The notes under the pieces were generated by a model. The model worked only from the letters and a program-made list of their open reading frames with translations, was not told the DNA's origin and did no database searches. Position numbers and translations under genes: made by a program. DNA of 64,000 nt, taken from positions 3,424,001 to 3,488,000 of the forward strand of contig OZ245742.1 of the NCBI GenBank assembly GCA_965227295.1. Reading direction: 5' to 3'. The DNA is from Leptonemataceae bacterium (GTDB taxonomy: Bacteria; Spirochaetota; Leptospiria; Leptospirales; Leptonemataceae). Of this stretch, positions 8,645 to 64,000 are shown piece by piece (the first letter of the stretch is position 1; each line of letters opens with the position of its first letter).

Positions 8645-10404
8645 GCTTGGGCTCTCCGCCACGGGTGGAATGCGTTCCGTGGAATGTGTTTTTCCAGTTC
8701 CGGATGATGGCGGACGATGACGTCTTTCATCGTCGTGTTGTCGATGTACTTCAGGCCCCAGCCGGTGTAGTATTCTTTCGTGTAGCAGCTTGTGAAAAAG
8801 CGATCCGTTAACAATCGCCGAGATGCCATTAAGACGAAAATCTGAAACGCCGTTTCGCCGAAACCGAAGCCCGGCGGTCGCCGCAGGGGGCCGTCCTCTG
8901 CCAGGCAGCCCACGAGCAGGTCCACCGCTTCGATCTCGCCGTTGTAGGCCTCGCTCAGTTCTTTTGCGATGTTCGGATCCGGATTGATCTCATCGAAGGA
9001 CTTCAATTCCGGGAGCTGGATCAACCTACGCAGCGCGTTGTAACGCGGGATCTGGCGTTCCCGATCGCGCAGGATGTCGATGGTGGCGAGATCGATGCGA
9101 ACGCCGCCGTGGTGCGGGGGCATTTGCAAATCCTGCAAGAAGCGCGGATAGTTGTGCAGAGTGAGCGCGCCGGGATGGACGGTACCGAACGAGTACATCA
9201 GATCCGTAAGATCGTACGGCGCCATGGCAGTACGGGTCTGCCGGTTTACCGCGTCCCCGGTGGGAAGCACGGCCAGGGCGGAGTCGTCCCGATGGGAGCG
9301 CAGGTCCAGTTCTTCGGGCAACAGCGGATGCAGGCGATAGACGGCGACGAATTCCTCGGTGAGCGTGTGTTCGGTACCGTGGTAGTTGCGCTTCGAACCG
9401 ACGATGCCGCTCAGAATGGGATTGCCGGTATGAAAAAGCTTCTTGATGTGCCGGCCGAGCAGGCCCCACCAGTTCGCCTTCATGGCGATGTCCAGGACCT
9501 TCGTCTGTAAAATGCCCGGCGTCCATTCCACCGTGTGGATTTTCGCCATGAGAGCGGTGTTGATGAGCCGCGCACGCTGGAACAGCTCTTCGTCCTGCAT
9601 TGCGGGATGGAGGCGCTTGAGTTCTTCGCAGATAAAGTTATGTTCTTTGGTCATTAAGGTGTGGAGCAGCGAGAGGCCGGCCCAGTAGTTCTCCTGGGTG
9701 CCGGTGAGGTCCACACCGAGGTGCTCGTCTTCAAGCAGGCGGCCGTCCGCGCCGATCTTCAAGTGCCCGCCTTCGCGGCTGCGCAGGCGCTCGCATTTTT
9801 CCCGGCTGTTGCCGTAGAGCTGGGTGCCGTCCCACCAGTGCGAGAAGTCGTTAGCGTAGGTCAGGATGCCGGGGTGCTTCGGATCGCTCCCGGAAACCGT
9901 GGCCGGCACGATCATGGGATCTTCGTGCCAGTCGTCATCCTCGGGCAGGGGGACCTCGTGATGTTCGGTGGTGGAGTTCACGTGAAAGAACCAGTCGTGG
10001 GCCATGAACTGAATCCAGGCGGCGGCGTGCAGGTTCAGAATCTTCGCCGGAATGAACTCCTTACGCCGCAGCAGTCGTCGGCTGATTTCCCGCGGATTCG
10101 GTTCGTTCAGTCGACGATCCTTGAGTTGCACGAGATTTTGCAGGGGGACATTGCGTCCGAAGGGCAATCGTCGCGTGCCCACGGCGGGGCTTTCCAGGTC
10201 GTTGCCCGCTCCTTCGGCGTCGCGATAGCGTTGATCCCCCGTCTGTACATCCGGAAGTAATCCATAAGTATTATGTAAGTTCTTTTTTAAGAGAGCACTG
10301 CGAATGAAGACGAGGTGTATGAGTGCCATGAGCCAGTTTCGGCTGTGCCAGGGGCGTTTGCTGTTCGGTTTTGTGATGTATGTACGCAGTCGCTGGAAGA
10401 TCAT
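8641..10404 (-). CDS. Animal-type heme peroxidase / fatty-acid alpha-dioxygenase-like protein
   Basis: AWIQFMAHDW, SHWWDGTQLYG, AKIHTVEWT, TEEFVAVYRLH, MASRRLLTDRFFT. Confidence 0.9.
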   Translation of the reverse strand: MIFQRLRTYITKPNSKRPWHSRNWLMALIHLVFIRSALLKKNLHNTYGLLPDVQTGDQRYRDAEGAGNDLESPAVGTRRLPFGRNVPLQNLVQLKDRRLNEPNPREISRRLLRRKEFIPAKILNLHAAAWIQFMAHDWFFHVNSTTEHHEVPLPEDDDWHEDPMIVPATVSGSDPKHPGILTYANDFSHWWDGTQLYGNSREKCERLRSREGGHLKIGADGRLLEDEHLGVDLTGTQENYWAGLSLLHTLMTKEHNFICEELKRLHPAMQDEELFQRARLINTALMAKIHTVEWTPGILQTKVLDIAMKANWWGLLGRHIKKLFHTGNPILSGIVGSKRNYHGTEHTLTEEFVAVYRLHPLLPEELDLRSHRDDSALAVLPTGDAVNRQTRTAMAPYDLTDLMYSFGTVHPGALTLHNYPRFLQDLQMPPHHGGVRIDLATIDILRDRERQIPRYNALRRLIQLPELKSFDEINPDPNIAKELSEAYNGEIEAVDLLVGCLAEDGPLRRPPGFGFGETAFQIFVLMASRRLLTDRFFTSCYTKEYYTGWGLKYIDNTTMKDVIVRHHPELEKHIPRNAFHPWRRAQA

Positions 10405-10481
10405 GGGTTCCTCTTTACGTCTGGAGTAGACGAAAGATCATCCATGAAAATGACGAGTGCTTAGAACTTTGTAAAAAAAAC

Positions 10482-13400
10482 TTAGTGGGCGGCCGGGGTT
10501 TGAGGGCGTAGCGGCAGGGTGATGGTGAAGCGGGCGTAGTTCCCGGCCTCGGAATCGAAACGCAATTGCCCGCCGTGTTTGCCGACCACGACGTCGTGAC
10601 TCAGGGAGAGGCCCAGGCCGACGCCGATGCCGGACGGTTTCGTTGTGAAGAACGGCGTGAAGATGCGTTGTCGATGTTCCGACTGAACGCCTTCCCCGTT
10701 GTCGTAAAACTCAATGATCACGAACTCACCCTCCCGGCGCAGGGATACGCGGAGGAGCGGACGGTAGGTGTCGTCGTCCTCCGCCTCGGCGCGCTCCGCG
10801 CGTTCCTGTAAGGAATCGAAGGCGTTGCGGGCGAGGTTCACGAACACCCGGGACATGTCCTGAACAAAGACGGGCACCCGGGGCAGGTTCGCCTCGAAAT
10901 CCCGTTCGATTTCCGGTAAGAACAGACCGCTGCGGGTTTTTGTTCCGAAGTAAACGAGGTCCAGGTCTTCTTTGAGTACGGTTTCGAGGTCCGTGAGCTC
11001 GCGCTCCTTCGACGGATCCCGGGCGTGCATGAGCATGCCGCGCACGATGCGATCAATGCGGCCGCCGTGTTCGTAGATCTTGCCCGCGTTCGTTTGAATG
11101 ATTTCCAGCAATTCTTGCAGGGATTCGCGTTGTTCCGTGGGTATTTCCGCCAGCTCTTCGAGCATATCCTCGACGACGCGCCGGGACATGTCGGCGAAGT
11201 TGTTGACGAAGTTCAGCGGGTTTTTGATTTCGTGGGCGATGCCCGCGGTCAGTTGTCCGAGGGACGCTAACTTTTCCTGAGAAATAATTTGTTCCTGCAT
11301 CTTACGCAGGTCGGCCAGGGCGTTTTCCAGGCTCTCGGTTTTTTCTTTGAGGTCCTCGGTGCGCTTCTCGACCATCTGTTCCAGGCGGCCGGCGTAGCCC
11401 TGCAACTCCTGGAGGGTGTCGCGCAATTTGAGATGGGTTTCCACCCGGGCCAGGAGTTCGCGCCGGCTGAAGGGTTTCGTGATGTAATCGTTGGCGCCGG
11501 CTTCCAGGGCGGCCACGAGGTCGGTGACCTGGTTTTTCGCGGAGAGGATGATGATGGGCAGTTCCGAGGCGGGATGTTCCTCGCGTAACGTGCGGCAGAC
11601 ATCGAAGCCGGAGATGCGCGGCATCATTAAATCGAGCAACACCAGGTCCGGCGGTTTGCCGGAAATCATTTCGAGGGCCTGGAAACCGTCCGTGGCCGTG
11701 CTCACTTCGATGCGCGCGTCGCTCAGATAGTCCTCCAACACCTGGATGTTTACCGGTTCATCGTCCACGACCAGGACGCGTTCGCCGTGAAAGCGCTTGT
11801 CCCGCGCCGCGGCGCGGCCGGCGGCGATGGGCATGCCGTGGATTTCCGGGGCCGGAGAGAAACTACTCAAGAGCGCGTCGCCCGCGCGCGTTTCGTCGCC
11901 GGACGTGAGGCCGCCGGCCTTGAGTTCCGGTCCGGCGCGCTCCAGTAAAAACGAAAACACGGAACCCTCGCCGACCCGGCTGTCGAGTTCGATCTCCGAG
12001 CCGTGCAGGCGCGTAAGGCTGCTGACGATGCTCAGTCCGAGGCCGCTGCCGCCGAACTCCCGCGCAATGGTGCCGTCGGCCTGTTCGAAAGAATCGAAGA
12101 TGCGCTGCTGTTGGTCTTCGGAAATGCCGATGCCCGTATCGTACACGGCCAGGCGAATGCGCTCGCCTTCGCGTTTGCCGATCAATCGAATGTCTCCGCC
12201 CGGCGGCGTAAACTTTACAGCGTTGCCGACCAGGTTCAGTAAGATTTGCTGGAGGCGATTTTCGTCGGCGGCGGCCAGGGGAAGGTCCGGATCGAAGTCG
12301 CCCTTTAGCTGGAGGCCCTTGCGTTCGGCCAGGGGCATGCTCACCTGTAAAACCAACTCACCGATCTTTTCGGCGTCCACGGCGCGCAGTTGTAGTTGCA
12401 GTTCGCCGTTCTTGAGTTTCGAAAAGTCGAGGATATCGTTTACCAGCGACGATAGGCGCTGACCGCTGGAGATGATCATGCCCAGGTTGCGCCGGAGTCG
12501 CTCGGGGTCTTCCGCACTGAACAAACACGACTCCGCCAGGCCGATGATGCCGTTGAGCGGTGTCCGCAGTTCATGGGACGTGTTCGCGAGGAATTCATCT
12601 TTCAGACGATCCGCGCGCTGCAAACTTTCGATGGCCAGTTCACGGCTTTTCAGGGCCTCGCGCCGGGCGAATTCTTTTTCTTCTTTAATGAGATTGAACC
12701 GATCCGCGAGGCCGAGAGACAGCAGCCATACCTCAAGAGCCGAGCCGAACTGAATGGCGTTGCGGGTAAAGAAGGTATCCGGTACGAGGCCCAGGCCGTA
12801 AAAGATGTACAGTGACGCGCCGAAGAAGAGCAGGCCCCAGGCGGCCATGTAAAAACGAGCCGGGCGATCTCCGCGCCACAACGAAATGCCGCCGGCGGTC
12901 ATGACCGCGAGAATCGTAACGAAAGAAAAGTATGACTTAAGGCTGACCAGATACTCCGGCAGGGAAATCTCAAGCAGCCAGAGCGGATAGGCCAGGAGCA
13001 TCATGATGCTCAGAATGCGATGCATAACCGGCGAGTTGTCCCGGGTGCGTAGATAACTGCGGGCGAAGCTGTTTACGAAGAACGCCGTGTTGTAGACGGA
13101 GAAGTGAATCAGGAAGGCGTAGGCTGCGGGGGTCGCGGGCCAGAGGTACTCCGCCCCGATGCCCGAGAGGGTCAGCATCATCAGCAGAAAACTGGCCACG
13201 AAGAGGACGTACTGGAGATAGCTTCCCTCGCGAATGGATACGAACAAGAAGAGGTTGTAGAGGATCATCACGGTGAGGATGCCCGCGTACATACCGTGGA
13301 AGAGTTTTTCGAAGGTGGCGATTTCCCAGAAGGTGCGCGCTTCCCGGATGAGCGGCGGCAGATTCAACGGCGCGCGCTCCCCGATGATGCGCAGATAGAT

Positions 13401-27158: not shown

Positions 27159-27366
27159 AGGGATGCGCAGGGTGCCGCGCAGCGGCAGTCCGGAGCGCGA
27201 AGCGCGGAGGACCAGCAAGGCGCCGCTTGTCGGTGCCGCGGTAGATGTTCCCCGCTGGCGAAGCGGAGCCCGGAGCAGCCCGGCGCCCGGCGGCTTCAGA
27301 CGGGGTGGATCGAACAGCGACCCCGGCCAGCGGGGTCTCGTTGGCGCCGGCCGGGCGCAACGCCCA
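27159..27366 (+). repeat. Branched palindromic element, family B, copy 2 (inside the IS)
   Basis: Same scaffold as 759-909, with compensatory stem changes. Confidence 0.85.
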
Positions 27367-30272: not shown

Positions 30273-32495
30273 ATGAACATCCAACGCAAACTCATCTGGG
30301 CCGCGCTGTTCGTCCTGGTGCCGTTCGTTTACGTTGCGCTGCTCGACCTTGCCGGCACCCGGGAGCGCCTGGACAACGTGTTCGTCGACATTCGCTACCG
30401 GGTCGCGAATCCCGGGCACCGCATTTCCGACAAAATCGCCATCATCGACGTGGACGAGGAATCGCTGCAGCAGCTCAAGGACGACGAGTTGTTCGGGCGC
30501 TGGCCCTGGCGTCGCGCCGCTTATACGGAGGTACTGGACTTCGCCCTGTACCGGGCCCAGGCGCGGGCGGTACTCTTCGACATTCTGTTCGTCGAGCGTT
30601 CGTTTTTCCAGGGGCCCAACGCGGAGTTCAGTGACGACGAGATCCTGGCCTCCGCCGGCGACTACTTTCCGGGCATCTATCACGCGATCAACTTTCGTTA
30701 CGATGCCAACGCTCCCCGGGTGCCGCCGCCGTTGCCGGAGCCGGAGTTGCTTTCGAAGGCCTGGGACGTGCACGTGGCGAACGAGGACATTGTGCCCGTC
30801 TTCAATCGCGTCGCCTATCCGGCCGGGGAGATCGGCCATCGTGTGTCCGGGCTGCAGTCGGTGACGTTCGCCCCGGATCCGGACGGCATCTCCCGGCGCA
30901 TCCGCCCGCTGTTCGGCGTGGGGGAGGCGGGCAATCGAAAGTTCTACCCGACCCTGGCCCTGGCCGGGCTGGACGCCGTGCACGGTGTCCGTGACGTAAC
31001 TTACACTGAAAACAATCTAACGATTCAAACTCAGGACGGCTCCGCCCTCGAACATCCTCTGCAAGACGGGCAGATGCGCCTGCACTATTACAGCGAGGAA
31101 GAACTGGAACGCATTCCCCGCCTGGGCGTCTTCGCCTTTCTGGCGTCCATGTCTTTGATCGAGCAGGGCGTCGACGACTTCAGCGAACTGGCCGTGGACC
31201 CGACGCTGCTGGCCGATCGCGTAGTAATCCTGGGGACCTCCGCCGCCGCCACCCACGATACGGTGACGACGCCCTACGGCATCGCGCCGGGGTTTATGCT
31301 GCACGCGATTCTGCTATCGAACTTACTCGAGGGCCACGCCCTGCACGTACTGCCCGGCTGGCTCGGCTACGCGATGATGATCGTACTGTTGCCGTTGACC
31401 GTGGCCTGCGTCCTGTTTTTTCACAACGTGGTGTTGCGGGTGATTCTGCCCGTGACGGTGTTCCTCGCCGTGGGTCTCAGTGCGGTCGTCTTGTTTCAGT
31501 ACGACATCGCGCTGCCCATGGCGCACGTCTGGCTTTCCATGCCGCCGGTTTTTCTGGCGTCCATGGCGTTGTTGAGTTTTACCGAGGGCGCCGAGAAGCG
31601 TCGCTATCGTCGCGTGCTCTCGAACATGGTGGACCCGACCATCGTCGGCGAGGCGTTAAAGGATCTCGAAGCGTTGAAACAGGGCGGGGAGAAAGAAATC
31701 ACCGCCTTCTTCTCGGACGTCGCCGGTTTCTCGACGATCAGCGAAGGGCTGAGTTCCCAGGCCCTGGCCGATCTTTTGAACGAGTACCTTTCGGCCATGA
31801 CGCTCATCTTAAAACACCATCGCGGCACGCTGGACAAGTACATCGGCGACGCGGTGGTGGGCATCTTCGGCGCGCCGATTGATCAGCCCGAACACTTTCG
31901 CGACGCGGCCCGGGCGAGCCTGGAGATGCTTGAACGCCTGGAAGAATTGAAAGCGTACTGGAAAAAGAACGATCTCTACATAGCTGAAGCGCAGGACATG
32001 CAGGTGCGCATCGGCCTGAACACCGGCACGGCGAAGGTCGGTTTTATGGGCACGGACGACCTGGCGTCGTATACGATGATGGGTGACACGGTGAATCTGG
32101 CCGCGCGCCTGGAAGCGGCGGGCAAGGACTACGGCGTGAGTTGTTTGATCAGTGAGAGTACGAACGCTCTCATCAAAGACGAGATGCTCACGCGTTTGCT
32201 CGACGCCGTCGTTGTGAAAGGCAAAACGAAACCCGTGCGCATCTATGAGCTGATCGGCGGCCGGAGTACTGTCACGGACCAGGCGGTGGAGGCCGCGGCA
32301 AAGTTCGAAGCCGGCTTCGCTTTGTATCTCCAGCGCGATTGGGACGGCGCGGTGCGAACGTTAGCGGAAGCGGAGCGCTTGCGCGGGCAGGGGCCGGACA
32401 GGGCCGTGGCCATGCTGGTGGAACGCTGCGAGTTCTATCGATCCGCGCCGCCCGCCGAGGGTTGGGACGGCGCCTTTGTGCGAACGCACAAGTAA
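30273..32495 (+). CDS. CHASE2-domain adenylate/guanylate cyclase
   Basis: GRWPWRR, FSDVAGFS, DKYIGDA, GDTVNLAARLE. Confidence 0.95.
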   Translation: MNIQRKLIWAALFVLVPFVYVALLDLAGTRERLDNVFVDIRYRVANPGHRISDKIAIIDVDEESLQQLKDDELFGRWPWRRAAYTEVLDFALYRAQARAVLFDILFVERSFFQGPNAEFSDDEILASAGDYFPGIYHAINFRYDANAPRVPPPLPEPELLSKAWDVHVANEDIVPVFNRVAYPAGEIGHRVSGLQSVTFAPDPDGISRRIRPLFGVGEAGNRKFYPTLALAGLDAVHGVRDVTYTENNLTIQTQDGSALEHPLQDGQMRLHYYSEEELERIPRLGVFAFLASMSLIEQGVDDFSELAVDPTLLADRVVILGTSAAATHDTVTTPYGIAPGFMLHAILLSNLLEGHALHVLPGWLGYAMMIVLLPLTVACVLFFHNVVLRVILPVTVFLAVGLSAVVLFQYDIALPMAHVWLSMPPVFLASMALLSFTEGAEKRRYRRVLSNMVDPTIVGEALKDLEALKQGGEKEITAFFSDVAGFSTISEGLSSQALADLLNEYLSAMTLILKHHRGTLDKYIGDAVVGIFGAPIDQPEHFRDAARASLEMLERLEELKAYWKKNDLYIAEAQDMQVRIGLNTGTAKVGFMGTDDLASYTMMGDTVNLAARLEAAGKDYGVSCLISESTNALIKDEMLTRLLDAVVVKGKTKPVRIYELIGGRSTVTDQAVEAAAKFEAGFALYLQRDWDGAVRTLAEAERLRGQGPDRAVAMLVERCEFYRSAPPAEGWDGAFVRTHK

Positions 32496-32588
32496 CGCCC
32501 GTTGTTCTTGAAACGCAGTCTTAATTGCGATGGACTCCCGTGAAAAAATCGTGGTTGTCCCGGCGCGTCCGGTCGCGAGTTTTTTCCC

Positions 32589-33455
32589 ATGAACGAAGGT
32601 GCACTGCGATTCTCCGGGCCGCCGGATTCACTCCCCGCGAAACTCACGGCCGTTCTCGAAGTCATTTTGCTGCTGGCTTCCGCTACGGCGGTGCTGCTGT
32701 GGTTGATGGGCATGCCCCTGTTTTATGCGGACGGCGAGCCGGTGCTTTCCGTGTTCACGGCGCTGTCGCTGCTGCTGCTCGTGATCGTGAGGCTGGCGCG
32801 CAAGTTTCTCTTCGGCTGGCCCACGGCACTTTCGCTGGCGTTGATCGGCGCGGTACTCGGCGGCAATCTTTCGTCCATGCTCATGCTCACGAGCATGCCG
32901 CCGGGGCTCATGCGTTCCTTTCCGGACGTGGTCATGACCTCGGTCTTCACGTCCCTCGGCCTGCTGCTCTTTTGTCTGTACGAGTTACTGATCGTCCTGC
33001 GTGAAACGCCGCGTTCGACCTTTATTCTGGACGACATCCTGTTGCACCTCGCCCTGGTTCCCGGCGGCTTAAGTTTACTCGGCTATCTGTTTGGCAATCC
33101 GTTGTATCTCAGTGTCGGGGAAGATCCGCGGGTGGGCATCTCGCCGTTGGAGATGATGTTCATGGGAACCTATGCCGTCACGGCGGTACTTTCGAATCGT
33201 CAGTTGTTTTTGTGGCAGTTCCTGGCCGCCGGCTGGATCAACCGCCTCATTTTCGCCGCGTTGTTTGCGAATCAGTTCATTGCGCCGGTGATCACGGCGT
33301 ACGCCTTTTCGACGGGCCTCGAATCCGGCGGCGGGCCGGGCATTGAGCTGTTCGTGTTGTTGGCCGGCGTGATTGCGACGTTGACGTTCCTGGTGATCCA
33401 GGCGTACTTACACACGCGCTCGCGCGAATCCGCACCGGCTCCGTCCCGCGAGTAA
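32589..33455 (+). CDS. Multi-pass membrane protein
   Basis: About 8 hydrophobic segments. Confidence 0.75.
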   Translation: MNEGALRFSGPPDSLPAKLTAVLEVILLLASATAVLLWLMGMPLFYADGEPVLSVFTALSLLLLVIVRLARKFLFGWPTALSLALIGAVLGGNLSSMLMLTSMPPGLMRSFPDVVMTSVFTSLGLLLFCLYELLIVLRETPRSTFILDDILLHLALVPGGLSLLGYLFGNPLYLSVGEDPRVGISPLEMMFMGTYAVTAVLSNRQLFLWQFLAAGWINRLIFAALFANQFIAPVITAYAFSTGLESGGGPGIELFVLLAGVIATLTFLVIQAYLHTRSRESAPAPSRE

Positions 33456-33664
33456 AGGGGCGATGTCTGATATTCAGAGCGACAGCCCGTCCGTACTCCG
33501 CGCGAATTTGAATACATTTCCGGTGTCTGCGCCGGGTCTGAAAAAAGACTGGCGCCGGTTTGCGCGGTATTGTAAGTTCGGCGCGTGTTTTCTTCGTTGA
33601 TCTGGACGCTCATCTTCGTCTACGCCGCGTTCTTTTATTTATTGAACCGGGTGATGGCGGATTG

Positions 33665-34252
33665 ATGGTACTCGGACACTACGCCGCCGCATTTATTGCC
33701 CGCCCGCACGTGCGGGAGGCGCCGTTGTGGGTGTTGCTTCTCTGCGCGAACCTGGCGGAGTTTTTGTGGCTCGGCCTGGCGCTGGCCGGCATCGAGGCGA
33801 CCGAGCCCGCGTCCATTTTAGACGCCACGTTCCAGAACCTCAAAGTACACATGACCTACAGCCACAACGTCGTGCCGAATCTGCTGCTCGGCTTCGGCGT
33901 GTTCGTCGTGGTGTACGCATACTATCGCAATCGAACTCTGGCGCTCTGGTGTGCGGGGCTCACGGTGCTGCACGTATGGTGCGACTACATCGTCGGCTTT
34001 CAACATGAATGGCTGGGGCGGGACTCACTCAAGATCGGCCTCGATTCCTACGGGCACTTCCCGCACGTCGCGATCCTCATCGAACTCGTTTTCGCCGTCG
34101 GTTGCGTCTTTTATTACAGCGTCGCCGAAAAACGCGCGGGCCGGCCGGTGCCGCGGCGTAAGCTCGTGTTTCTCTACACGGCGTTCATCATCGGAGTCGG
34201 CGCCTGGTTGCCCACGGCCACGATTCCGTTGCGCACAGTGCTGGGGTTGTGA
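33665..34252 (+). CDS. Membrane protein, metal-dependent hydrolase-like
   Basis: MVLGHY, YSHN, HVWCDYIV. Confidence 0.7.
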   Translation: MVLGHYAAAFIARPHVREAPLWVLLLCANLAEFLWLGLALAGIEATEPASILDATFQNLKVHMTYSHNVVPNLLLGFGVFVVVYAYYRNRTLALWCAGLTVLHVWCDYIVGFQHEWLGRDSLKIGLDSYGHFPHVAILIELVFAVGCVFYYSVAEKRAGRPVPRRKLVFLYTAFIIGVGAWLPTATIPLRTVLGL

Positions 34253-34260
34253 GCCTTCGA

Positions 34261-35440
34261 GACGCCGTTCCGTTGCGCCTCAGAAAGGATTAATGTACAC
34301 TGACCGCCACTTAAGCCACGATCCGGGGCGTGCTCGAACTACTTGAGCGTTTCCGGTAGTTCAAGAGCTGCGATTCGTTGCGTTGGCCGTGAAAAATAGA
34401 AAGTAAGTCCCCCGCGAACCCGCACCCGCTCCGCCCCGCGAATTGAGCGGGGCTCCGGGGTGCGGATTCGCTTGATGTGCACTTCCAATCTGTGAGGCTC
34501 AGGCACCGAGAACATACCAACGCGTTTCTTACGGCAAAGACGCCGTTCCGGTGCGCCTTACCACATTCCCCGGCATGACCTCCGTTCATCTGCTGGAACC
34601 AGCCGTGACCATAAAAGTGTGAATCCAAACTGGCCTTAACTTACATCACGATTCGGGGCGTGCTCAAACGGATGAAAAGTTTCCGGCAGTTCAAGAACTC
34701 TGGCTCGCGGCGTTTGCCGTGAGACACATAAGGTAAGTCGCGCAATAGGTAAGGGATTGATTTGGCTACGGCTTTGCGGGAGTTGTGGATTTTCGTTTCG
34801 TTAAGAATGCTGCGTTCGACCCGGACGCTGATTGTGCGACTCAGCTACCGAGGCGATTCTTACGGCAAAGACGCCGTTCCGGTGCGCCTTACCACGTTCC
34901 CCGGCATGACCTCCGTTCATCTGCTGGAACCAGCTGTACCCATAAAATCATTACTGTACACTGGCCGCCACTTACACTACGATTCGGGGCGTGCTCGAAC
35001 GAATAAAACTTACCGGTAGTTCAAGAGCTGCGGTTCGTGGCGGTTGCCGTGAGAAACACGAAGTAAGTCGCGGAATTGTGAAGGGCTTTTTTTTGCTACA
35101 GCTGAGCGGGAGTTGTGGATTTTCGTTTTGTTAGGAATGCTGCGTTCGACCCGGACGCTGATTGTGCGACTCAGCTACCGAGGCGATTCTTACGGCAAAG
35201 ACGCCGTTCCGGTGCGCCTTACCACGTTCCCCGGCATGACCTCCGTTCATCTGCTGGAACCAGCCGTACCCATAAAAGCCTTAATCCAAACTGGCCGCCA
35301 CTTACACCACGATTCGGGGTGCGCTCGAAAGAATAGAGTTTTGCGGTAGTTCAAGAGTCGCGGTTCGTCACGTTGGCTGTGAGAAACATAAAGTAAGCCG
35401 CAGCATCGTTCAGTCTTTTGTGGGCTACGGCTGAGCGGAC
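34261..35440 (+). repeat. Tandem array 1 of ~330-bp non-coding unit (family A)
   Basis: Anchor GACGCCGTTCCG at 34261, 34539, 34870, 35200 (periods 278, 331, 330). Confidence 0.97.
34414..34471. repeat. 58-bp REP-like hairpin (family C) nested in array 1
   Basis: GCGAACCCGCACCC...GCCCCGC-loop-GCGGGGC...GGGTGCGGATTCGC; near-identical copy at 63079-63136. Confidence 0.9.
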
Positions 35441-35610
35441 TTGTGCGGGATGTCTCCTGCATCGCCTGCGCTCGTCAAGATTGATGTAAGCAAACTTCGT
35501 GATGTTGGCTCGCGTCGGAAAATTAGAAGGTTGCGGCAAAGAACGAGGATGTTTTTTTGCACCGATGCGATGGGATGATCGTCGAAGGCATACGCTGCAC
35601 TGATAAAAAA

Positions 35611-36981
35611 ATGCCCGCAAAGAAAAAAGAAAAACCGAACCTCGACGAAGCCCTGGAAAACGACGACGCCGATGCTGTGCGGCGTTGTTTGCGCGACGGT
35701 GCCGATCCGAACTTCATCGCCGAAAACCGGCGCAGTCTCCCGTTCATTTGCGCGGCCGAAGAAAACAGCGATGCAGTGGTGCGAGCGCTCGTCGAAGGCG
35801 GGGCCGACATCAATCTCCCGGGCAAGAACGGGAACACCCCGCTCAGCAGAATGTGTGGCGCCTGGGGTCCCGCTCGCGTTACGGTCATGGAATTCGACGC
35901 GCTGAAAGCACGGATCCGGCTCCTCGTGGAACTCGGTGCCGATGTCAACGCCATCGGGAAAAACGATACGACGCCGCTGCTTGCTGCGATCCATGGGGCC
36001 GGCGGCCCCATCGTGGAGTTACTGCTCAATGAACTCGGTGCCGATCCGACCATGCGATCCTTCGGTGGAACGACACCCCTGATGTATGCCGCGCTCTATG
36101 AAGACGTGACCATGATCGACGCACTCGTTCGTTGCGGTTGTCCGCTCAACGCGACGAACGAAAACGGCATCAGCGCCCTGCACATCACGGCGATCACGAA
36201 CAATCCGGTGGCGGCCCGGGCCCTCCTCGGTTACGGTGCCGAAGCAAACCTCGCGGATCGATACGGCGCCACGCCGCACGACTACGCGGTGTTGTTCGAA
36301 CTTCCCGAACTCGCGGAAATTCTGCGCACGCCGGAGACACCGGCCGCCACGGAGGATCGACTCCGCTCCATTTGCGACAGGGCGCACCGCAAGTTTCGGG
36401 AGTATGTCCAATCAGAAGCTGAACGACTGCTGAGTCAGGATTATTTCGACGCCAATTTTGAGGCCGTCGTCACGCTTTTCGCGAATCAGTACTTTTCGAT
36501 GAACGATCTTACAGTCCGGCGTGTCTTTGATCCTCTCTGGCCGCAGTTTCTAAAACTCGTGCCGCCTTTTGCGGCGGGTCACTATGCGACTACAACCTTC
36601 GAATTCAAGTCCCAGGGCGGCGCCATCCTGGACTTTTTTTACGACAAAGAACCATTGCTGGACGTTGCGATTGCACACTACGAAAGGCTCGGCCTGGCAG
36701 AGTTCGAAGAGCTCGCCCATAAAGCCCGAAGCATCTACTACGAAAGTGTGGTCTCCAAAATAGAAGCACTGCGCCAACGCATGCGCGACGAATACCCCCG
36801 TGACGAGTACGTCTCCGGTGAGGACGCCGTCTATGAATGGTACGAGGAGGAAGACGGCGATATTCCGGAGGGGAGACTCTTTGACGATATCCGTTCGAAA
36901 ATGGAGGATCTGCACGACGCACCGGCCGCCATAGAAGCCCGCAAGAAAGCCTTCGAAGAATACCTGCGCGAAGAATCATAA
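35611..36981 (+). CDS. Ankyrin-repeat protein with acidic, possibly DUF4375/DMP19-like C-terminal domain, copy 1
   Basis: GADPN, GNTPL, TTPLMYAA, SALHITA repeats; the C-domain assignment is tentative. Confidence 0.88.
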   Translation: MPAKKKEKPNLDEALENDDADAVRRCLRDGADPNFIAENRRSLPFICAAEENSDAVVRALVEGGADINLPGKNGNTPLSRMCGAWGPARVTVMEFDALKARIRLLVELGADVNAIGKNDTTPLLAAIHGAGGPIVELLLNELGADPTMRSFGGTTPLMYAALYEDVTMIDALVRCGCPLNATNENGISALHITAITNNPVAARALLGYGAEANLADRYGATPHDYAVLFELPELAEILRTPETPAATEDRLRSICDRAHRKFREYVQSEAERLLSQDYFDANFEAVVTLFANQYFSMNDLTVRRVFDPLWPQFLKLVPPFAAGHYATTTFEFKSQGGAILDFFYDKEPLLDVAIAHYERLGLAEFEELAHKARSIYYESVVSKIEALRQRMRDEYPRDEYVSGEDAVYEWYEEEDGDIPEGRLFDDIRSKMEDLHDAPAAIEARKKAFEEYLREES

Positions 36982-36994
36982 ACAGGAGAAGAAC

Positions 36995-38356
36995 ATGCCT
37001 GAAGAAAAAGAAGAGCCGCCCAATCTCGACGATGCCCTGGAAAACGACGATGCCGATGCTGTGCGGCGTTGCCTGCGTGACGGTGCCGATCCGAATGCCA
37101 GGATTAAGTACGGACAGCTTCCGTTGACCAGCGCCGCACGGGAGAACAGCGAAGACGTGTTGCGAGCCCTCGTCGAAGGCGGTGCCGATATCAACCTGCC
37201 CGCCGCGGCTCCGCTGAGCGCGGTCTGCGAAAGCGGCCTGGTCCCCGTTCACTTCCAGAGACCGGGACTCGATGCGGTGGAAGCACGCATCCGACTGTTG
37301 GTCGAACTCGGAGCCGACGTCAACTTCACCGCACAGAACGTCGACCCGCCGGTCTTTTGCGCGCTTCACGGAACCGGAGGCTCCATCGTGGAGTTACTGA
37401 TCAACGAACTCGGCGCCGATCCCGCGGTGCAGTCCTACAACGGAACGACCGCTCTGATGCATGCCGCGATTTACGAGGACGTGGCGTTCATCGACGGTCT
37501 CGTTCGTTGCGGTTGTCCGCTCAACGCGACGAACGAAAACGGCATCAGCGCCCTGCACATCACGGCGATCACGAACAATCCGGTGGCGGCCCGGGCCCTC
37601 CTCGGTTACGGTGCCGAAGCAAACCTCGCGGATCGATACGGCGCCACGCCGCACGACTACGCGGTGTTGTTCGAACTTCCCGAACTCGCGGAAATTCTGC
37701 GCACGCCGGAGACACCGGCCGCCACGGAGGATCGACTCCGCTCCATTTGCGACAGGGCGCACCGCAAGTTTCGGGAGTATGTCCAATCAGAAGCGGAAAA
37801 CCTTCTGAGCACTCCGTATTTCGACGACCATTTTTTCAGCGCCATCGTGCACTTCGCGGATCTGTACTTCGCGATAAAAGGGATTACGATGCGCCATGTA
37901 TTTTCGAATCAGTGGCCGCAGTTCTTAAAACTCGTACCGCCCTTTGCAGCAGGTCACTACGCCACAACTACATTCGAATTCCTGACCCGGGACGGAAACA
38001 TCCTGCACTTTTTTTACGAGAAAGAGCCGTTGCTGGACGTTGCGATTGCATACTACGAAAGACTCGGCCTGGCAGAGTTCAAAGAACTCGCCCGCAATGC
38101 CCGGAGCATCTACTACGAAAGCGTGGTCTCCAGAGTAGAAGCACTGCGCCAACGCATGCGCGACGAATACCCCCGTGACGAGTACGTCTCCGGTGAGGAC
38201 GCCGTCTATGAATGGTACGAGGAGGAAGACGGCGATATTCCGGAGGATAAACTCTTCCGGGACATCCGTTCGAAAATGGGTCGCCTGTACGGTACACCCG
38301 CCGTCATCGAGGCTCGCAAAAAAGCCTACGAAGAATACCTGCGCGAAGGATCATAA
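36995..38356 (+). CDS. Ankyrin-repeat protein, copy 2
   Basis: Paralogue of 35611-36981 with identical DNA tracts. Confidence 0.88.
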   Translation: MPEEKEEPPNLDDALENDDADAVRRCLRDGADPNARIKYGQLPLTSAARENSEDVLRALVEGGADINLPAAAPLSAVCESGLVPVHFQRPGLDAVEARIRLLVELGADVNFTAQNVDPPVFCALHGTGGSIVELLINELGADPAVQSYNGTTALMHAAIYEDVAFIDGLVRCGCPLNATNENGISALHITAITNNPVAARALLGYGAEANLADRYGATPHDYAVLFELPELAEILRTPETPAATEDRLRSICDRAHRKFREYVQSEAENLLSTPYFDDHFFSAIVHFADLYFAIKGITMRHVFSNQWPQFLKLVPPFAAGHYATTTFEFLTRDGNILHFFYEKEPLLDVAIAYYERLGLAEFKELARNARSIYYESVVSRVEALRQRMRDEYPRDEYVSGEDAVYEWYEEEDGDIPEDKLFRDIRSKMGRLYGTPAVIEARKKAYEEYLREGS

Positions 38357-43528: not shown

Positions 43529-43630
43529 GGATACACGCTTGTACGCGTATCACCGATCGCAAGCAAAAACCTGCGACAAGCGACGGGAACTCAGCCGCAC
43601 AACCTGCGCCCGGGTCGAACGCGGCTACAC

Positions 43631-44687
43631 ACTTAATCTTTCTCAAGATCCGCCACGTACCGCAGCTCTTGAACTACCGGAAACGCTCAAGTAGTTCCCA
43701 CACGCCCCGAGTCGTGGTGTAAGTGACGGCCAGTGTACATTAGCCTTGTATGGGTACAGCTGGTTCCAGCAGATGAACGGAGGTCATGCCGGGGAGCATG
43801 GTAAGGCGCACCGGAACGGCGTCTTCACTTTAAGAAACGCTAAGGTAGCTGCGTCGCAAACCGACGTCCGGGTCGAACGCAGCATTCTTAACAAAACGAA
43901 AAACCACAACTCCCGCGGACCGTAGCCAAAAAGGCCCTCAACGCTTGCCGACTTACTTTATGTTTCTCACAGCCAACGTGACGAACCGCAGCTCTTGAAT
44001 TACCGGTAAGTTTTATTCGTTCGAGGACGCCCCGAATCGTAGTGTAAGTGACGGCCAGTGTACATTAAGCCTTGTATGGGTACAGCTGGTTCCAGCAGAT
44101 GAACGGAGGTCATGCCGGGGAGTGTGGTAAGGCGCACCGGAACGGCGTCTTCGTCGTAAGAAACGTTACGGTAGCTGAGTCGCAAACCGACGTCCGGGTC
44201 GAACGCAGCATTCTTAACAAAACGAAAAACCACAACTCCCGCGGACCGTAGCCAAAAAGGCCCCTCAACGCTTGCCGGCTTACTTTATGTTTCTCACAGC
44301 CAACGTGACGAACCGCAGCTCTTGAATTACCGGTAAGTTTTATTCGTTCGAGGACGCCCCGAATCGTAGTGTAAGTAGCGGCCAGTGTACATTAAGCCTT
44401 GTATGGGTACGGCTGGTTCCAGCAGATGAACGGAGGTCATTCCGGGGAATGTGGTAAGGCGCACCGGAACGGCGTCTTCTTCGCAAGAGTCGCCCGGGTA
44501 GCTGAGTCGCAAACCGACGTCCGGGTCGAACGCAGCATTCTTAACAAAACGAAAGTCCACAACTCCCGCAAAGCCGTAGCCAAAAAAAGCCCTTCACAAT
44601 TCCGCGACTTACTTCGTGTTTCTCGTGGCAAACGCAACGAATCGCAGCTCTTGAACTACCGGAGAGTTTTGATTCGTTCGAGCGCGC
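43631..44687 (-). repeat. Tandem array 2 of family A unit (inverted relative to array 1)
   Basis: Reverse-complement anchors ending at 43823, 44149, 44476 (periods 326, 327). Confidence 0.97.
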
Positions 44688-44695
44688 ATATGTGT

Positions 44696-45073
44696 TCAAC
44701 GTTTCACGCCCACGATCATTACGATCCGCGCAACGACATAGATGAAGAGGAACGCAAGAATCCCGAACACGATGACACGCAGGGCCGACACGGCGATGTC
44801 GTCCCAGAACTCGCTGTCTACCAGGAAGTAGCCCGGCTCGTCCTGCGCGCGCGGGCCGGCGTGGCACATGCAACCGAAACGCGTAAAGCGGCCCAGGCGT
44901 TGTGCGTTCGTTTCGCCGTCGCCGGAGTACAAAGCCGCGCAGTTTGCGCTGCATTGCGTTTCGAGATAAGGGTCCACGTAATATGCGGTGAGCGCAAAGT
45001 AGGCGGCGAACATACACGCGGCTCCGATGATCACCATGACGATGCCGATGCTGTTGAGTTGCGTGCGGGCCAT
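44696..45073 (-). CDS. Small two-TM protein with Cys-rich loop
   Basis: Two TM helices flanking CSANC...GCMC. Confidence 0.65.
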   Translation of the reverse strand: MARTQLNSIGIVMVIIGAACMFAAYFALTAYYVDPYLETQCSANCAALYSGDGETNAQRLGRFTRFGCMCHAGPRAQDEPGYFLVDSEFWDDIAVSALRVIVFGILAFLFIYVVARIVMIVGVKR

Positions 45074-62568: not shown

Positions 62569-62636
62569 AATGCTTCGGACGATTGTATGGCCCGGGCGTT
62601 ACGAGGCACCTTCTTTTTTTGGGCTTTGCACGGATG

Positions 62637-63282
62637 CAAGAACCCGGTTCGGTGCGTTTGCCGTGAAAAAAGGAGCAAATCGCAAAACGCTGAAGGGTCT
62701 TTTTTGGCTACGGCTCTTCGGAGTTGTGGATTTTCGTATTGCTGAGAATGCTGCGTTCGACCCGGACGCTAATTGTGCGACTCAGCTACCATAGCGTTTC
62801 CTGCGACGAAGACGCCGTTCCGGTGCGCCTTGCCACACTTCCCCGGCATGACCTCCGTTCATCGGCTGGAACCAGCCGTACCCAATAAAGTCTTAATCCA
62901 AACTGGCCTCAACTTACACCACGATTCGGGGCGTGTTCGAATGACCGAAAAGTTTTCGGTAGTTCAAGGCTTGTGGCTCGCGGCGTTTGCCGTGAAAAAA
63001 GGGAGTAAATCGCCGAACGTTAAGGTGGTTTTTTTTGCTACAGCTGAGCGGGAGTTGTGGATTTTCGTTTTGTAAGTCGCGAATCCGCACCCGCTCCGCC
63101 CCGCGGAGAGAGCGGGGCTGCGGGGTGCGGATTCGCTTCATGGATTTTCCAGGGAGAAGACGCCGTTCCGGTGCGCCTTACCACACTTCCCCGGCATGAC
63201 CTCCGATCATCTGCTGGAACCAGCCGTACCCAAAAAAGTCTTAATCCAAACTGGCCTCAACTTACACCACGATTCGGGGCGT
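62637..63282 (+). repeat. Tandem array 3 of family A unit
   Basis: Anchors at 62811 and 63159, plus a leading partial unit. Confidence 0.95.
63079..63136. repeat. 58-bp REP-like hairpin (family C) nested in array 3
   Basis: Near-identical to 34414-34471 except mainly in the loop. Confidence 0.9.
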
Positions 63283-63290
63283 CTGCGAAT

Positions 63291-64000
63291 TCAAACAAGA
63301 AACGGCACCGTCTTTTCGTAGAGCCAGTCGGGCATCTTTTTCTTGAGCGTTTCGTCGATGAAGTCGCGGCGATAGCGGGGCGAGAAGTGAATGAGATACA
63401 ACCGCTCCACGTCGCGCAACGCCTCGGCGTTCGCAACGATTTCGTCGAGATGAATGTGGCCCCACTGCCGCGCGCGTTCCACCGGGCGTTTGTCGTCAAT
63501 GAACGTGCACTCCAGAAACAGAATCTTCGACTGACGGACGATTTCGTTTTCCAGAAGAAACTCGATCTGCGTATCGCCGGAGAAGGTAATGTGCGGGACG
63601 ACGGCGTCGTAAAACATATCGTCGCGTTCTTTCTTGAGCCGCGCAATCTCCGGGCCGGGCAGATTCAGGAACTCCGGCTTGAGCTTGCGCGTGCGTTCGA
63701 AGATGGAGTAACCGTTGGACGGCACCCGATGCACGCTGCGCACGGCGCGAAACTTCAGGGTCCCGCTGAGATCGTACTCGCGATCGTAGTCCAGGGCGTG
63801 GACGTTGTAGGTCGCTTCGAAGTCTTCGATCTCGAACCACAGGCGGAGGATTTCTTTGAGCGGCCTTTCGACTTCCGGCGGCACGTAGATGTCCGCGGGC
63901 GGCAGGCGGCGCAGATTGCGTTGGGATACGTGATAGGGAATGCCGGCGCTGTGATCCAGGTGGCCGTGGGTCAGCAGGATCGTCGGCACCTCGACCAGCC
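63291..64000 (-). CDS. Metallo-beta-lactamase-fold protein, RNase Z-like (5' end outside window)
   Basis: THGHLDH, HRVP, FSGDT, LECTF, GHIH, IHFSPRY. Confidence 0.85.
   Translation of the reverse strand, partial: LVEVPTILLTHGHLDHSAGIPYHVSQRNLRRLPPADIYVPPEVERPLKEILRLWFEIEDFEATYNVHALDYDREYDLSGTLKFRAVRSVHRVPSNGYSIFERTRKLKPEFLNLPGPEIARLKKERDDMFYDAVVPHITFSGDTQIEFLLENEIVRQSKILFLECTFIDDKRPVERARQWGHIHLDEIVANAEALRDVERLYLIHFSPRYRRDFIDETLKKKMPDWLYEKTVPFLV

Follow-up and report, generated by a model that had tools for sequence, protein, structure and literature searches.

A BIME-like mosaic repeat of about 330 bp in intergenic arrays of a Leptonemataceae genome

BIME-2 elements are tandem inverted pairs which, as outlined in PMC3333891, spread by transposition or recombination and are then amplified locally. 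The CGTC repeat families are presented, in the account of PMC3733652, as lacking a dedicated transposase. The origin and spread of bacterial intergenic repeats without a RAYT is the question addressed by the genus described here, whose genomes appear to hold a series leading from a solitary motif through an inverted dimer to genome-wide arrays. A literature search, with supplements and subscription journals outside its scope, returned no published description of the 330-bp family concerned.

The family was noticed in a 64-kb stretch of DNA, hereafter the window, of a Leptonemataceae genome (G000) that consists of a single 5.94-Mb contig with 60% GC and is 93.6% complete. Two other genomes of the same genus, the congeners G001 and G002, were compared with it. 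A preliminary description, made from the window alone, had reported a non-coding unit in three tandem arrays marked by nine copies of an anchor sequence, with full periods of 326-331 bp. All nine copies of this 19-mer are found where it placed them, at 34261 (with one substitution), 34539, 34870 and 35200, at 43823, 44149 and 44476 on the minus strand, and at 62811 and 63159. The full periods measure 331, 330, 327 and 326 bp, and the remaining two anchor intervals (278 and 348 bp) each combine a deletion with a plug-in hairpin of about 60 bp. TRF detects arrays 1 and 2, with periods of 330 and 327. The features are as follows, in window coordinates.

34261..35445, plus strand: array 1, made of an anchor fragment, a partial unit, a plug-in hairpin, two full units and a partial unit; it starts 8 nt past the stop codon at 34252
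34284..34409, plus strand: partial unit of array 1 (unit positions 76-201), from the nhmmer profile
34414..34471, plus strand: plug-in hairpin B of array 1, about 60 bp
34539..34869, plus strand: full unit of array 1, 331 bp
34870..35199, plus strand: full unit of array 1, 330 bp, the reference copy
34875..34947, minus strand: half X′ (unit positions 6-78), the three-box core in diverged and inverted form
35095..35157, plus strand: half X, the three-box core common to the two congeners (box 1, 11-12 nt, box 2, 27 nt, box 3)
35200..35445, plus strand: partial unit of array 1 (positions 1-249) with a ragged 3′ end
43624..44687, minus strand: array 2, made of a partial unit, two full units (327 and 326 bp) and a partial unit; it starts 8 nt past the stop codon at 44696
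62635..63293, plus strand: array 3, made of unit positions 152-330, 1-265, plug-in hairpin B and 1-134; it ends on a stop codon, that of the gene at 63291-63989
63079..63136, plus strand: plug-in hairpin B of array 3

A solitary partial copy of plug-in hairpin B is also present 800 bp ahead of array 1, at 33420-33463, where it and the 3′ end of the gene terminating at 33455 overlap; 45 of the 50 genomic copies of this hairpin are located at arrays of the family. The genome's other large repeat family, composed of mini-hairpin modules, has a copy at 27196-27256 of the window (genome position 3451215) and has module E in common with the 330-bp arrays.

The proposal that these arrays belong to a high-copy, genome-wide family was borne out by a whole-genome profile search. 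The anchor occurs 186 times in G000 at no more than one mismatch, and not once in the reversed genome used as a control. A profile built from 97 near-full copies found 312 pieces, which merged into 115 intergenic arrays with 126 near-full units, spanning 74 kb or 1.25% of the genome, with unit periods ranging from 325 to 334. Because adjacent units are only 74-96% identical (mean 0.84, vs 0.79 between loci) and short-read contigs tile the arrays with piled-up depth, an origin of the arrays as assembly artefacts is unlikely. The contigs come from two runs of one study, one of which may be the source sample, and match the arrays at 95% identity or more in 468 and 312 pieces. No single contig spans an array, and joints between pieces in these contigs, which may stem from other loci of the family, were left out of account.

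The 330-bp unit consists of two diverged halves in inverted orientation, X and X′, each organized around a three-box core. A half comprises about 165 bp and its core 65 bp, with the boxes spaced by 11-12 nt and about 27 nt. The unit profile matches its own reverse complement at unit positions 62-236, and a profile of the first half matches the second half on the opposite strand in 41 of 97 copies at E<10 (7 at E<0.01), compared with 3 (0) for reversed controls. Direct comparison of the two consensus halves gives weak similarity (global z 1.8; local p 0.019); their relatedness rests mainly on near-perfect inverted dimers at four G000 loci, where the second member has features of both halves. 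Two of these four intermediate dimers match both half profiles. The preliminary description had denied any terminal inverted repeats, which is correct for the array ends and incorrect for the unit, since the unit itself is such an inverted pair. Strong invariance accompanies this architecture: 57 of 330 columns are invariant over the 97 copies, vs 0-1 in 20 single-rate simulations, the first few columns being partly invariant by selection because copies were chosen by a match starting at the anchor. Plug-in hairpin modules of 59-75 bp enter at fixed points, namely the symmetry centre, the interior of box 2 and the interior of the inverted box 3. On the reverse strand the core begins with CGTC, and CGTC and GTAG words are found at the core ends with no hairpin after them.

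Array placement is strongly tied to gene ends. With genes called by our own codon model (4,816 in G000), 61 of the 115 arrays lie between convergent genes and 6 between divergent genes, where 17% would be expected for each (p 2e-18 and 3e-4). Array ends are within 25 nt of a facing stop codon in 48/88 and 57/82 cases and within 25 nt of a gene start in only 1/27 and 6/33. Convergent gaps that lack an array are small to begin with (median 25 nt), so no deletion is needed at array sites. The ends are ragged over the whole unit and cluster near positions 110-185 and 300-330, close to the two symmetry centres. No terminal inverted repeats or fixed ends were found at the arrays, and no target-site duplication was apparent, as junction matches at the 115 arrays, whose ends are fuzzy, do not exceed in length those of shuffled pairs. 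The phase at which an array starts and the one at which it ends differ by no more than 30 nt in 36 of 88 arrays, where 24.3 would be expected (p 0.002); for a limit of 10 nt the count is 12 (9.2 expected, p 0.2), three cut-offs having been tried.

The units are mosaics of one another. Linkage among variable sites drops from an r2 of 0.27 under 10 nt to 0.018 beyond 40 nt, vs a flat 0.13-0.15 at both ranges in three clonal simulations, although the simulated tree was built from these mosaic data, and recurrent mutation reduces linkage too. Haplotype blocks of several bases are independent at a distance of 200-250 nt (p 0.26 and 0.11) and are not so at 30 nt (p 0.005). Identical tracts are up to 234 nt long within an array and up to 142 nt between loci, so local duplication and inter-locus exchange both take place. 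Arrays are found at new positions downstream of stop codons; their ends are ragged, target duplication is absent, and they grow by period-length duplications and swap short tracts between loci.

Strong, block-wise conservation and the entry of plug-in hairpins at fixed points could also befit a multimeric structured RNA, as considered in the preliminary description, in which each unit would be either an RNA gene or a monomer released by a ribozyme and perhaps circular. A weak hairpin at 228-250 with some one-sided G-U-compatible changes points the same way. However, the comparison with Rfam that had been proposed returned no family at the gathering cut-off or at E<=5, apart from a tRNA and a chance Pab91 match on plug-in B. 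The RNAalifold consensus reaches at best -21 kcal/mol with zero compensatory pairs, and the strongest covariation (mutual information) connects neighbouring positions in haplotype blocks, not pairing partners. Circular folding of 15 single copies gave z averages of -0.26 for one strand and -0.10 for the other, and the cross-species core alignment folds at -3.7, so that neither the halves nor the core yielded a conserved fold by RNAalifold, covariation or single-copy folding. Units are moreover cut at many positions by array ends, and co-directional contexts comprise 27 sense and 21 antisense cases. A structured RNA is thus very unlikely, and a viroid- or retrozyme-like rod was rejected for its lack of conserved structure by mutual information, RNAalifold and circular folding.

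Nor is the unit a gene. In agreement with the non-coding character first assigned to it, periods vary from 325 to 334 and no frame is distinguishable from column-shuffled controls. Of the six frames, +2 performs best in synonymy, BLOSUM and stop rate, with z of only 0.4 and 0.9, and one of its codons is a stop in 64 of 97 copies; a coding origin was rejected, as this frame is not significant against the controls. The same figures weigh on derivation from a decayed coding repeat or from a MITE of a resident IS1595-like transposon, a most unlikely source, for which the rank of frame +2, a stretch 'AGT..H..L...W' that by eye resembles an IS1595-type N-terminus, and the tandem arrangement of the IS1595-like genes themselves in G000 and G001 might be adduced. 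Array ends have no terminal inverted repeat or target duplication. The unit and core profiles have no match at E<5 in the IS1595-like flanks, and for this want of similarity the MITE was set aside. The characteristics of MITEs in general are absent: terminal inverted repeats or fixed ends, target-site duplication, and ends like those of a resident IS. The IS1595-like transposase genes are arranged head to tail at genome positions 34765-38225, 9060-11252 and 5924602-5926794 of G000 and at about 1565000-1647000 of G001 C2, with a period of ~1.25 kb, their inverted ends being separated by 8-bp spacers; in several clusters the first copy comes immediately after a stop codon.

Other known arrangements were considered. 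As the preliminary description had held, the arrays are unlike CRISPR arrays, which were rejected since the variable blocks recur as shared haplotypes and not as unique spacers, the best match of the 49 CRISPR spacers tested being 13 nt. They are equally unlike integron attC cassette arrays, as there are no ORF cassettes between units. DGR-like A-specific mutation was rejected because the spectrum is one of ordinary transitions, and a group II intron or retron origin because the unit has no similarity to intron domains or to the retron locus. G000 does carry CRISPR array(s) of about 50 spacers with a duplicated leader-like segment at 780340-786088 and, at about 4547700-4559100, densely clustered tRNA-like sequences that the genome contains twice.

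The congeners provide a different picture of the same element. Copies of the three-box core at E<1e-7 number at least 15 in G001 and at least 23 in G002, mostly solitary; these are lower bounds from the 150 candidates scored per genome, and the training alignment for the core included 16 congener copies. Arrays of the 330-bp unit were found in neither, and tandem arrays occur only in G000 among the three genomes of the genus. Among 39 loci, spacer 1 measures 11 nt in 27 and spacer 2 measures 26-30 nt throughout; the sequence of the spacers varies, and hairpins enter these cores at the same point as in G000. The three-box scan of G000 located only one solo core outside arrays. Because the congeners hold mostly solo cores and near-perfect inverted dimers survive in G000, an order of states from solo core to inverted dimer to tandem array is suggested. 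At the fliN locus the congeners have one inverted pair and G000 an array. Both congeners have an empty site at the position of array 3 (a gap of about 150-170 bp vs 722), and gene order at array 2 is not conserved in them. Five congener core loci have both neighbours adjacent in G000 and no array there, and at two further loci the best G000 matches (54% and 49% identity), which may be paralogues, are next to arrays. A second repeated non-coding motif is found within a few hundred bases of several solo cores (five loci in G001 and G002).

Beyond the genus, 39 other genomes of the family and 120 of the class gave one weak match each (E 0.003 and 0.008), and plasmid and phage collections gave none. 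A pattern scan of genome contigs retrieved 2 loci, both with a congener-type core. Scans of metagenome and viral sequences returned 0 and 0, then 8 and 1 matches, all inside long ORFs and judged to be chance.

G001 and G002 have six core loci in common at orthologous positions, with the boxes kept and the spacers different. Together with the occurrence of the fliN element in all three genomes, this would be expected if the boxes were host protein-binding sites at gene ends, for a nucleoid, topoisomerase or termination factor, that were maintained by host selection and expanded without a dedicated enzyme. The route would lead from an inverted dimer to circles formed by homologous recombination, illegitimate re-integration and host conversion, and the long identical tracts within arrays and between loci, as well as the failure to find a dedicated enzyme (see below), are compatible with it. 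However, the core sites are not essential, because five congener loci have no array in G000 and only one solo core exists there outside arrays. The neighbours of arrays and cores share no common function, and more than 100 new sites would seem many for illegitimate integration. Expansion of host sites in this manner is unlikely overall.

Array orientation is linked to replication. With origin and terminus assigned from GC skew (dnaA at 1,186,497), the anchor strand reads as lagging-strand sequence in 72 of the 115 arrays (63%, p 0.009). Among the seven subsets in which this bias was examined, it reaches 42/61 between convergent genes (p 0.004) and is not significant between co-directional genes (26/48). 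When the assumed origin is slid along the genome, the bias is maximal at the dnaA-marked origin and is reached by 8 of 119 offsets. Orientations of neighbouring arrays are uncorrelated, and the motifs of the other repeat family display no bias (100/200 and 88/169). Transcription may contribute as a confounder, because the operon facing the array 3′ end is longer (2.9 vs 2.0 genes, p 0.03). Causes discussed in PMC3971601 for replication-orientation bias include oriented targets, selection after insertion, fork interaction and clamp-binding DDE enzymes.

Reverse transcription offers another route to oriented, mosaic arrays. G000 encodes 10 RT genes (9 group II intron copies and 1 retron-like gene) and has arrays, whereas no RT genes were found in G001 and G002, which have only solo cores; all nine introns (9/9) are oriented with the replication fork. 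Group II intron RTs switch templates. Such an RT, acting in trans, could copy read-through dimer transcripts with template switching and insert the products at fork single-stranded DNA, a target of group II introns (PMC6698660), to leave ragged mosaic multimers. Near-free shuffling of blocks and ragged ends would fit this process. Yet the comparison comprises only three genomes, the array bias of 63% is far weaker than that of the introns, there is no fold for an RT to recognise, and cores have spread in congeners that are now devoid of RT. The intron loci show no resemblance to the unit profile either, and the retron-like locus is matched by neither the unit nor the core. Mobilization by an intron RT is quite unlikely. 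One group II intron family has four G000 copies, alike in their flanks, at genome positions 32446-34330, 3743265, 4553832 and 5028782, and at least one of them is directly upstream of an IS1595-like cluster. The single retron-like RT gene (341 aa) is at 3068800-3069813 and has an AT-rich upstream region.

Searches for a transposase of the RAYT type employed two profiles, because PF01797 aligns only in part with some TnpA(REP) classes (PMC6006769). Neither PF01797 (0/3) nor NF047646 (0/3) found a Y1/RAYT transposase in the three genomes, which are about 93% complete, with positive controls matched. A regular expression for the HUH motif yielded 0 candidates, which is a weak test. A search for IS91 Y2 genes returned nothing either, but its positive control was not matched, so this result carries no weight. 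Profile scans found neither unit nor core at the IS ends of G000, nor at one IS110 gene or at GIY-YIG, IS4/IS5-type and DDE_Tnp_1_6 genes, which were rejected as drivers on that ground. As stated in the preliminary description, no mobility gene adjoins the three arrays of the window, whose six flanking proteins have no mobility domain in Pfam. The 224 array neighbours in G000 include no family larger than 3, and the 72 neighbours of congener cores include no dedicated mobility gene except two IS3-type pieces. The locus at which a unit would flank a mobility gene, which the preliminary description had proposed to look for, was not encountered, and its suggestion of an undescribed system is to that extent not established.

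Tyrosine recombinase genes are found near arrays more often than expected, with 3 of 4 within 1.5 kb of one, vs 8% of genes (p about 0.002, calculated by hand and noticed post hoc). Two of these three are, by our own reading of names, a XerC/D pair common to the congeners. These XerC/D-like genes occupy genome positions 2962948-2963793 and 5671707-5672744, both within 1.5 kb of an array, and an array fragment lies 72 bp upstream of the start of one. Two paralogous small elements headed by a tyrosine integrase (PF00589), absent from the PF00589 matches of both congeners, are located at 2989306-2991719 and 4223524-4225977, and an identical AT-rich 15-mer opens both and abuts a repeat, which belongs to the 330-bp family in one case and to another family in the other. 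The integrase at 2989306, beside an array and the third of the recombinase genes just mentioned, was rejected as the driver since its paralogue adjoins a different repeat and no att duplication was seen.

From the observed architecture, placement, polarity, invariance and mosaicism we infer an enzyme and a mobile intermediate. The non-autonomous element with a trans-acting enzyme encoded elsewhere, one of the two options first offered, remains the best reading. More specifically, the family would be a non-autonomous BIME-like mosaic element, inserted at replication forks by an enzyme in trans and then duplicated and converted locally, a scenario with about an even chance of being correct. The boxes are proposed to be invariant because a trans-acting protein recognises them. 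The intermediate, made of dimer or multimer pieces, would be circular or single-stranded; it would be opened at imprecise points close to the two symmetry centres and inserted with preferred polarity at replication forks. Selection would retain insertions downstream of genes, and host recombination, or the same enzyme, would subsequently duplicate and shuffle units. The enzyme may be lost or may belong to an unrecognised class.

Several observations sit uneasily with this non-autonomous element. No RAYT/Y1 enzyme was found in the three genomes, no IS end of G000 was found to carry unit or core, the halves do not fold as REPs do, and the direct similarity of the consensus halves is weak. At the 10-nt limit, start and end phases do not match significantly. 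The orientation bias amounts to no more than 63%, is not significant co-directionally and is confounded with operon length. The six core loci in place in both congeners also fit a host function, and no excision or insertion event was observed. A more specific version is possible but doubtful: a BIME-like system read by three spaced boxes instead of hairpins, with fork-polar insertion and blocks shuffled at a 10-20-nt scale, whose enzyme would lie outside HUH Y1 (an unrecognised nuclease or recombinase encoded by the host, or a group II RT in trans). If true, a box-recognised non-Y1 system would be a new route to bacterial repeat expansion, with three stages (solo, dimer and array) in one genus. 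The three-box site is sharply defined and usable as bait for a binding protein, and the replication-polarity signal narrows the mechanism. Without the enzyme, the family is one more lineage-specific mosaic repeat, though an unusually large one, in an uncultured organism.

Among described systems, IS200/IS605 elements and group II introns have an orientation tied to replication direction, as do the arrays, but encode their own enzyme and have defined hairpin or ribozyme ends (PMC3971601, PMC6698660). The pneumococcal BOX, RUP and SPRITE repeats, as characterised in PMC3049150, are likewise species-restricted, modular and enriched between convergent genes, lie 61-63% on one replication strand and insert into one another. 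BOX and RUP differ in having terminal inverted repeats, target duplications and folded RNA, none of which is found here, and their strand bias mirrors gene bias, whereas the bias of the arrays is clearest between convergent genes (PMC3049150). REPs tagged GTAG or CGTC are described as lying within ~20 bp of both stop codons of convergent genes and as forming dimers, and the CGTC families further resemble the present one in having no dedicated transposase; those repeats are short stem-loops, unlike the spaced three-box motif without conserved fold (PMC3733652). In REPINs of Pseudomonas fluorescens SBW25, as reported in PMC3116915, an inverted doublet is the likely replicative unit, tandem clusters extend over several hundred bases and singlets are more diverged, all features with parallels here. 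REPINs nevertheless form hairpins and are accompanied by a RAYT in the genome, whereas the solos of the congeners are the main form and keep their boxes, with no excision observed (PMC3116915).

The closest counterpart is BIME-2. Against the preliminary statement that the unit matches no REP or BIME, the inverted halves in tandem, the placement at gene 3′ ends and the plug-in modules all correspond to BIME-2/REPIN clusters; the size, the non-hairpin halves and the lack of a RAYT do set it apart. With REP, BIME and REPIN sequences it shares an extragenic location, high copy number, gene 3′ ends, convergent enrichment and inverted pairs in tandem, and it has neither their 20-40-nt hairpin palindrome nor a cognate RAYT/TnpA(REP) flanked by repeats. 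Since the short hairpin and the cognate RAYT are both missing, it is not counted as a member of REP/BIME. Its halves of ~165 bp, with a 65-bp three-box core, exceed the 20-40-nt palindromes of BIME-2 with TnpA(REP) described in PMC3333891, and it differs further from BIME-2 in that it forms no stable hairpin, no hairpin was seen after a REP-type tag, no Y1/RAYT gene was found in the three genomes and neighbouring copies are only 74-96% identical. Nonetheless, the element works like a BIME: as in E. coli BIME-2 and atypical BIMEs, related halves are inverted and in tandem, extragenic, and cover about 1% of the genome, and variable linkers, chimeric copies and dispersal combined with local amplification are common to both (PMC3333891).
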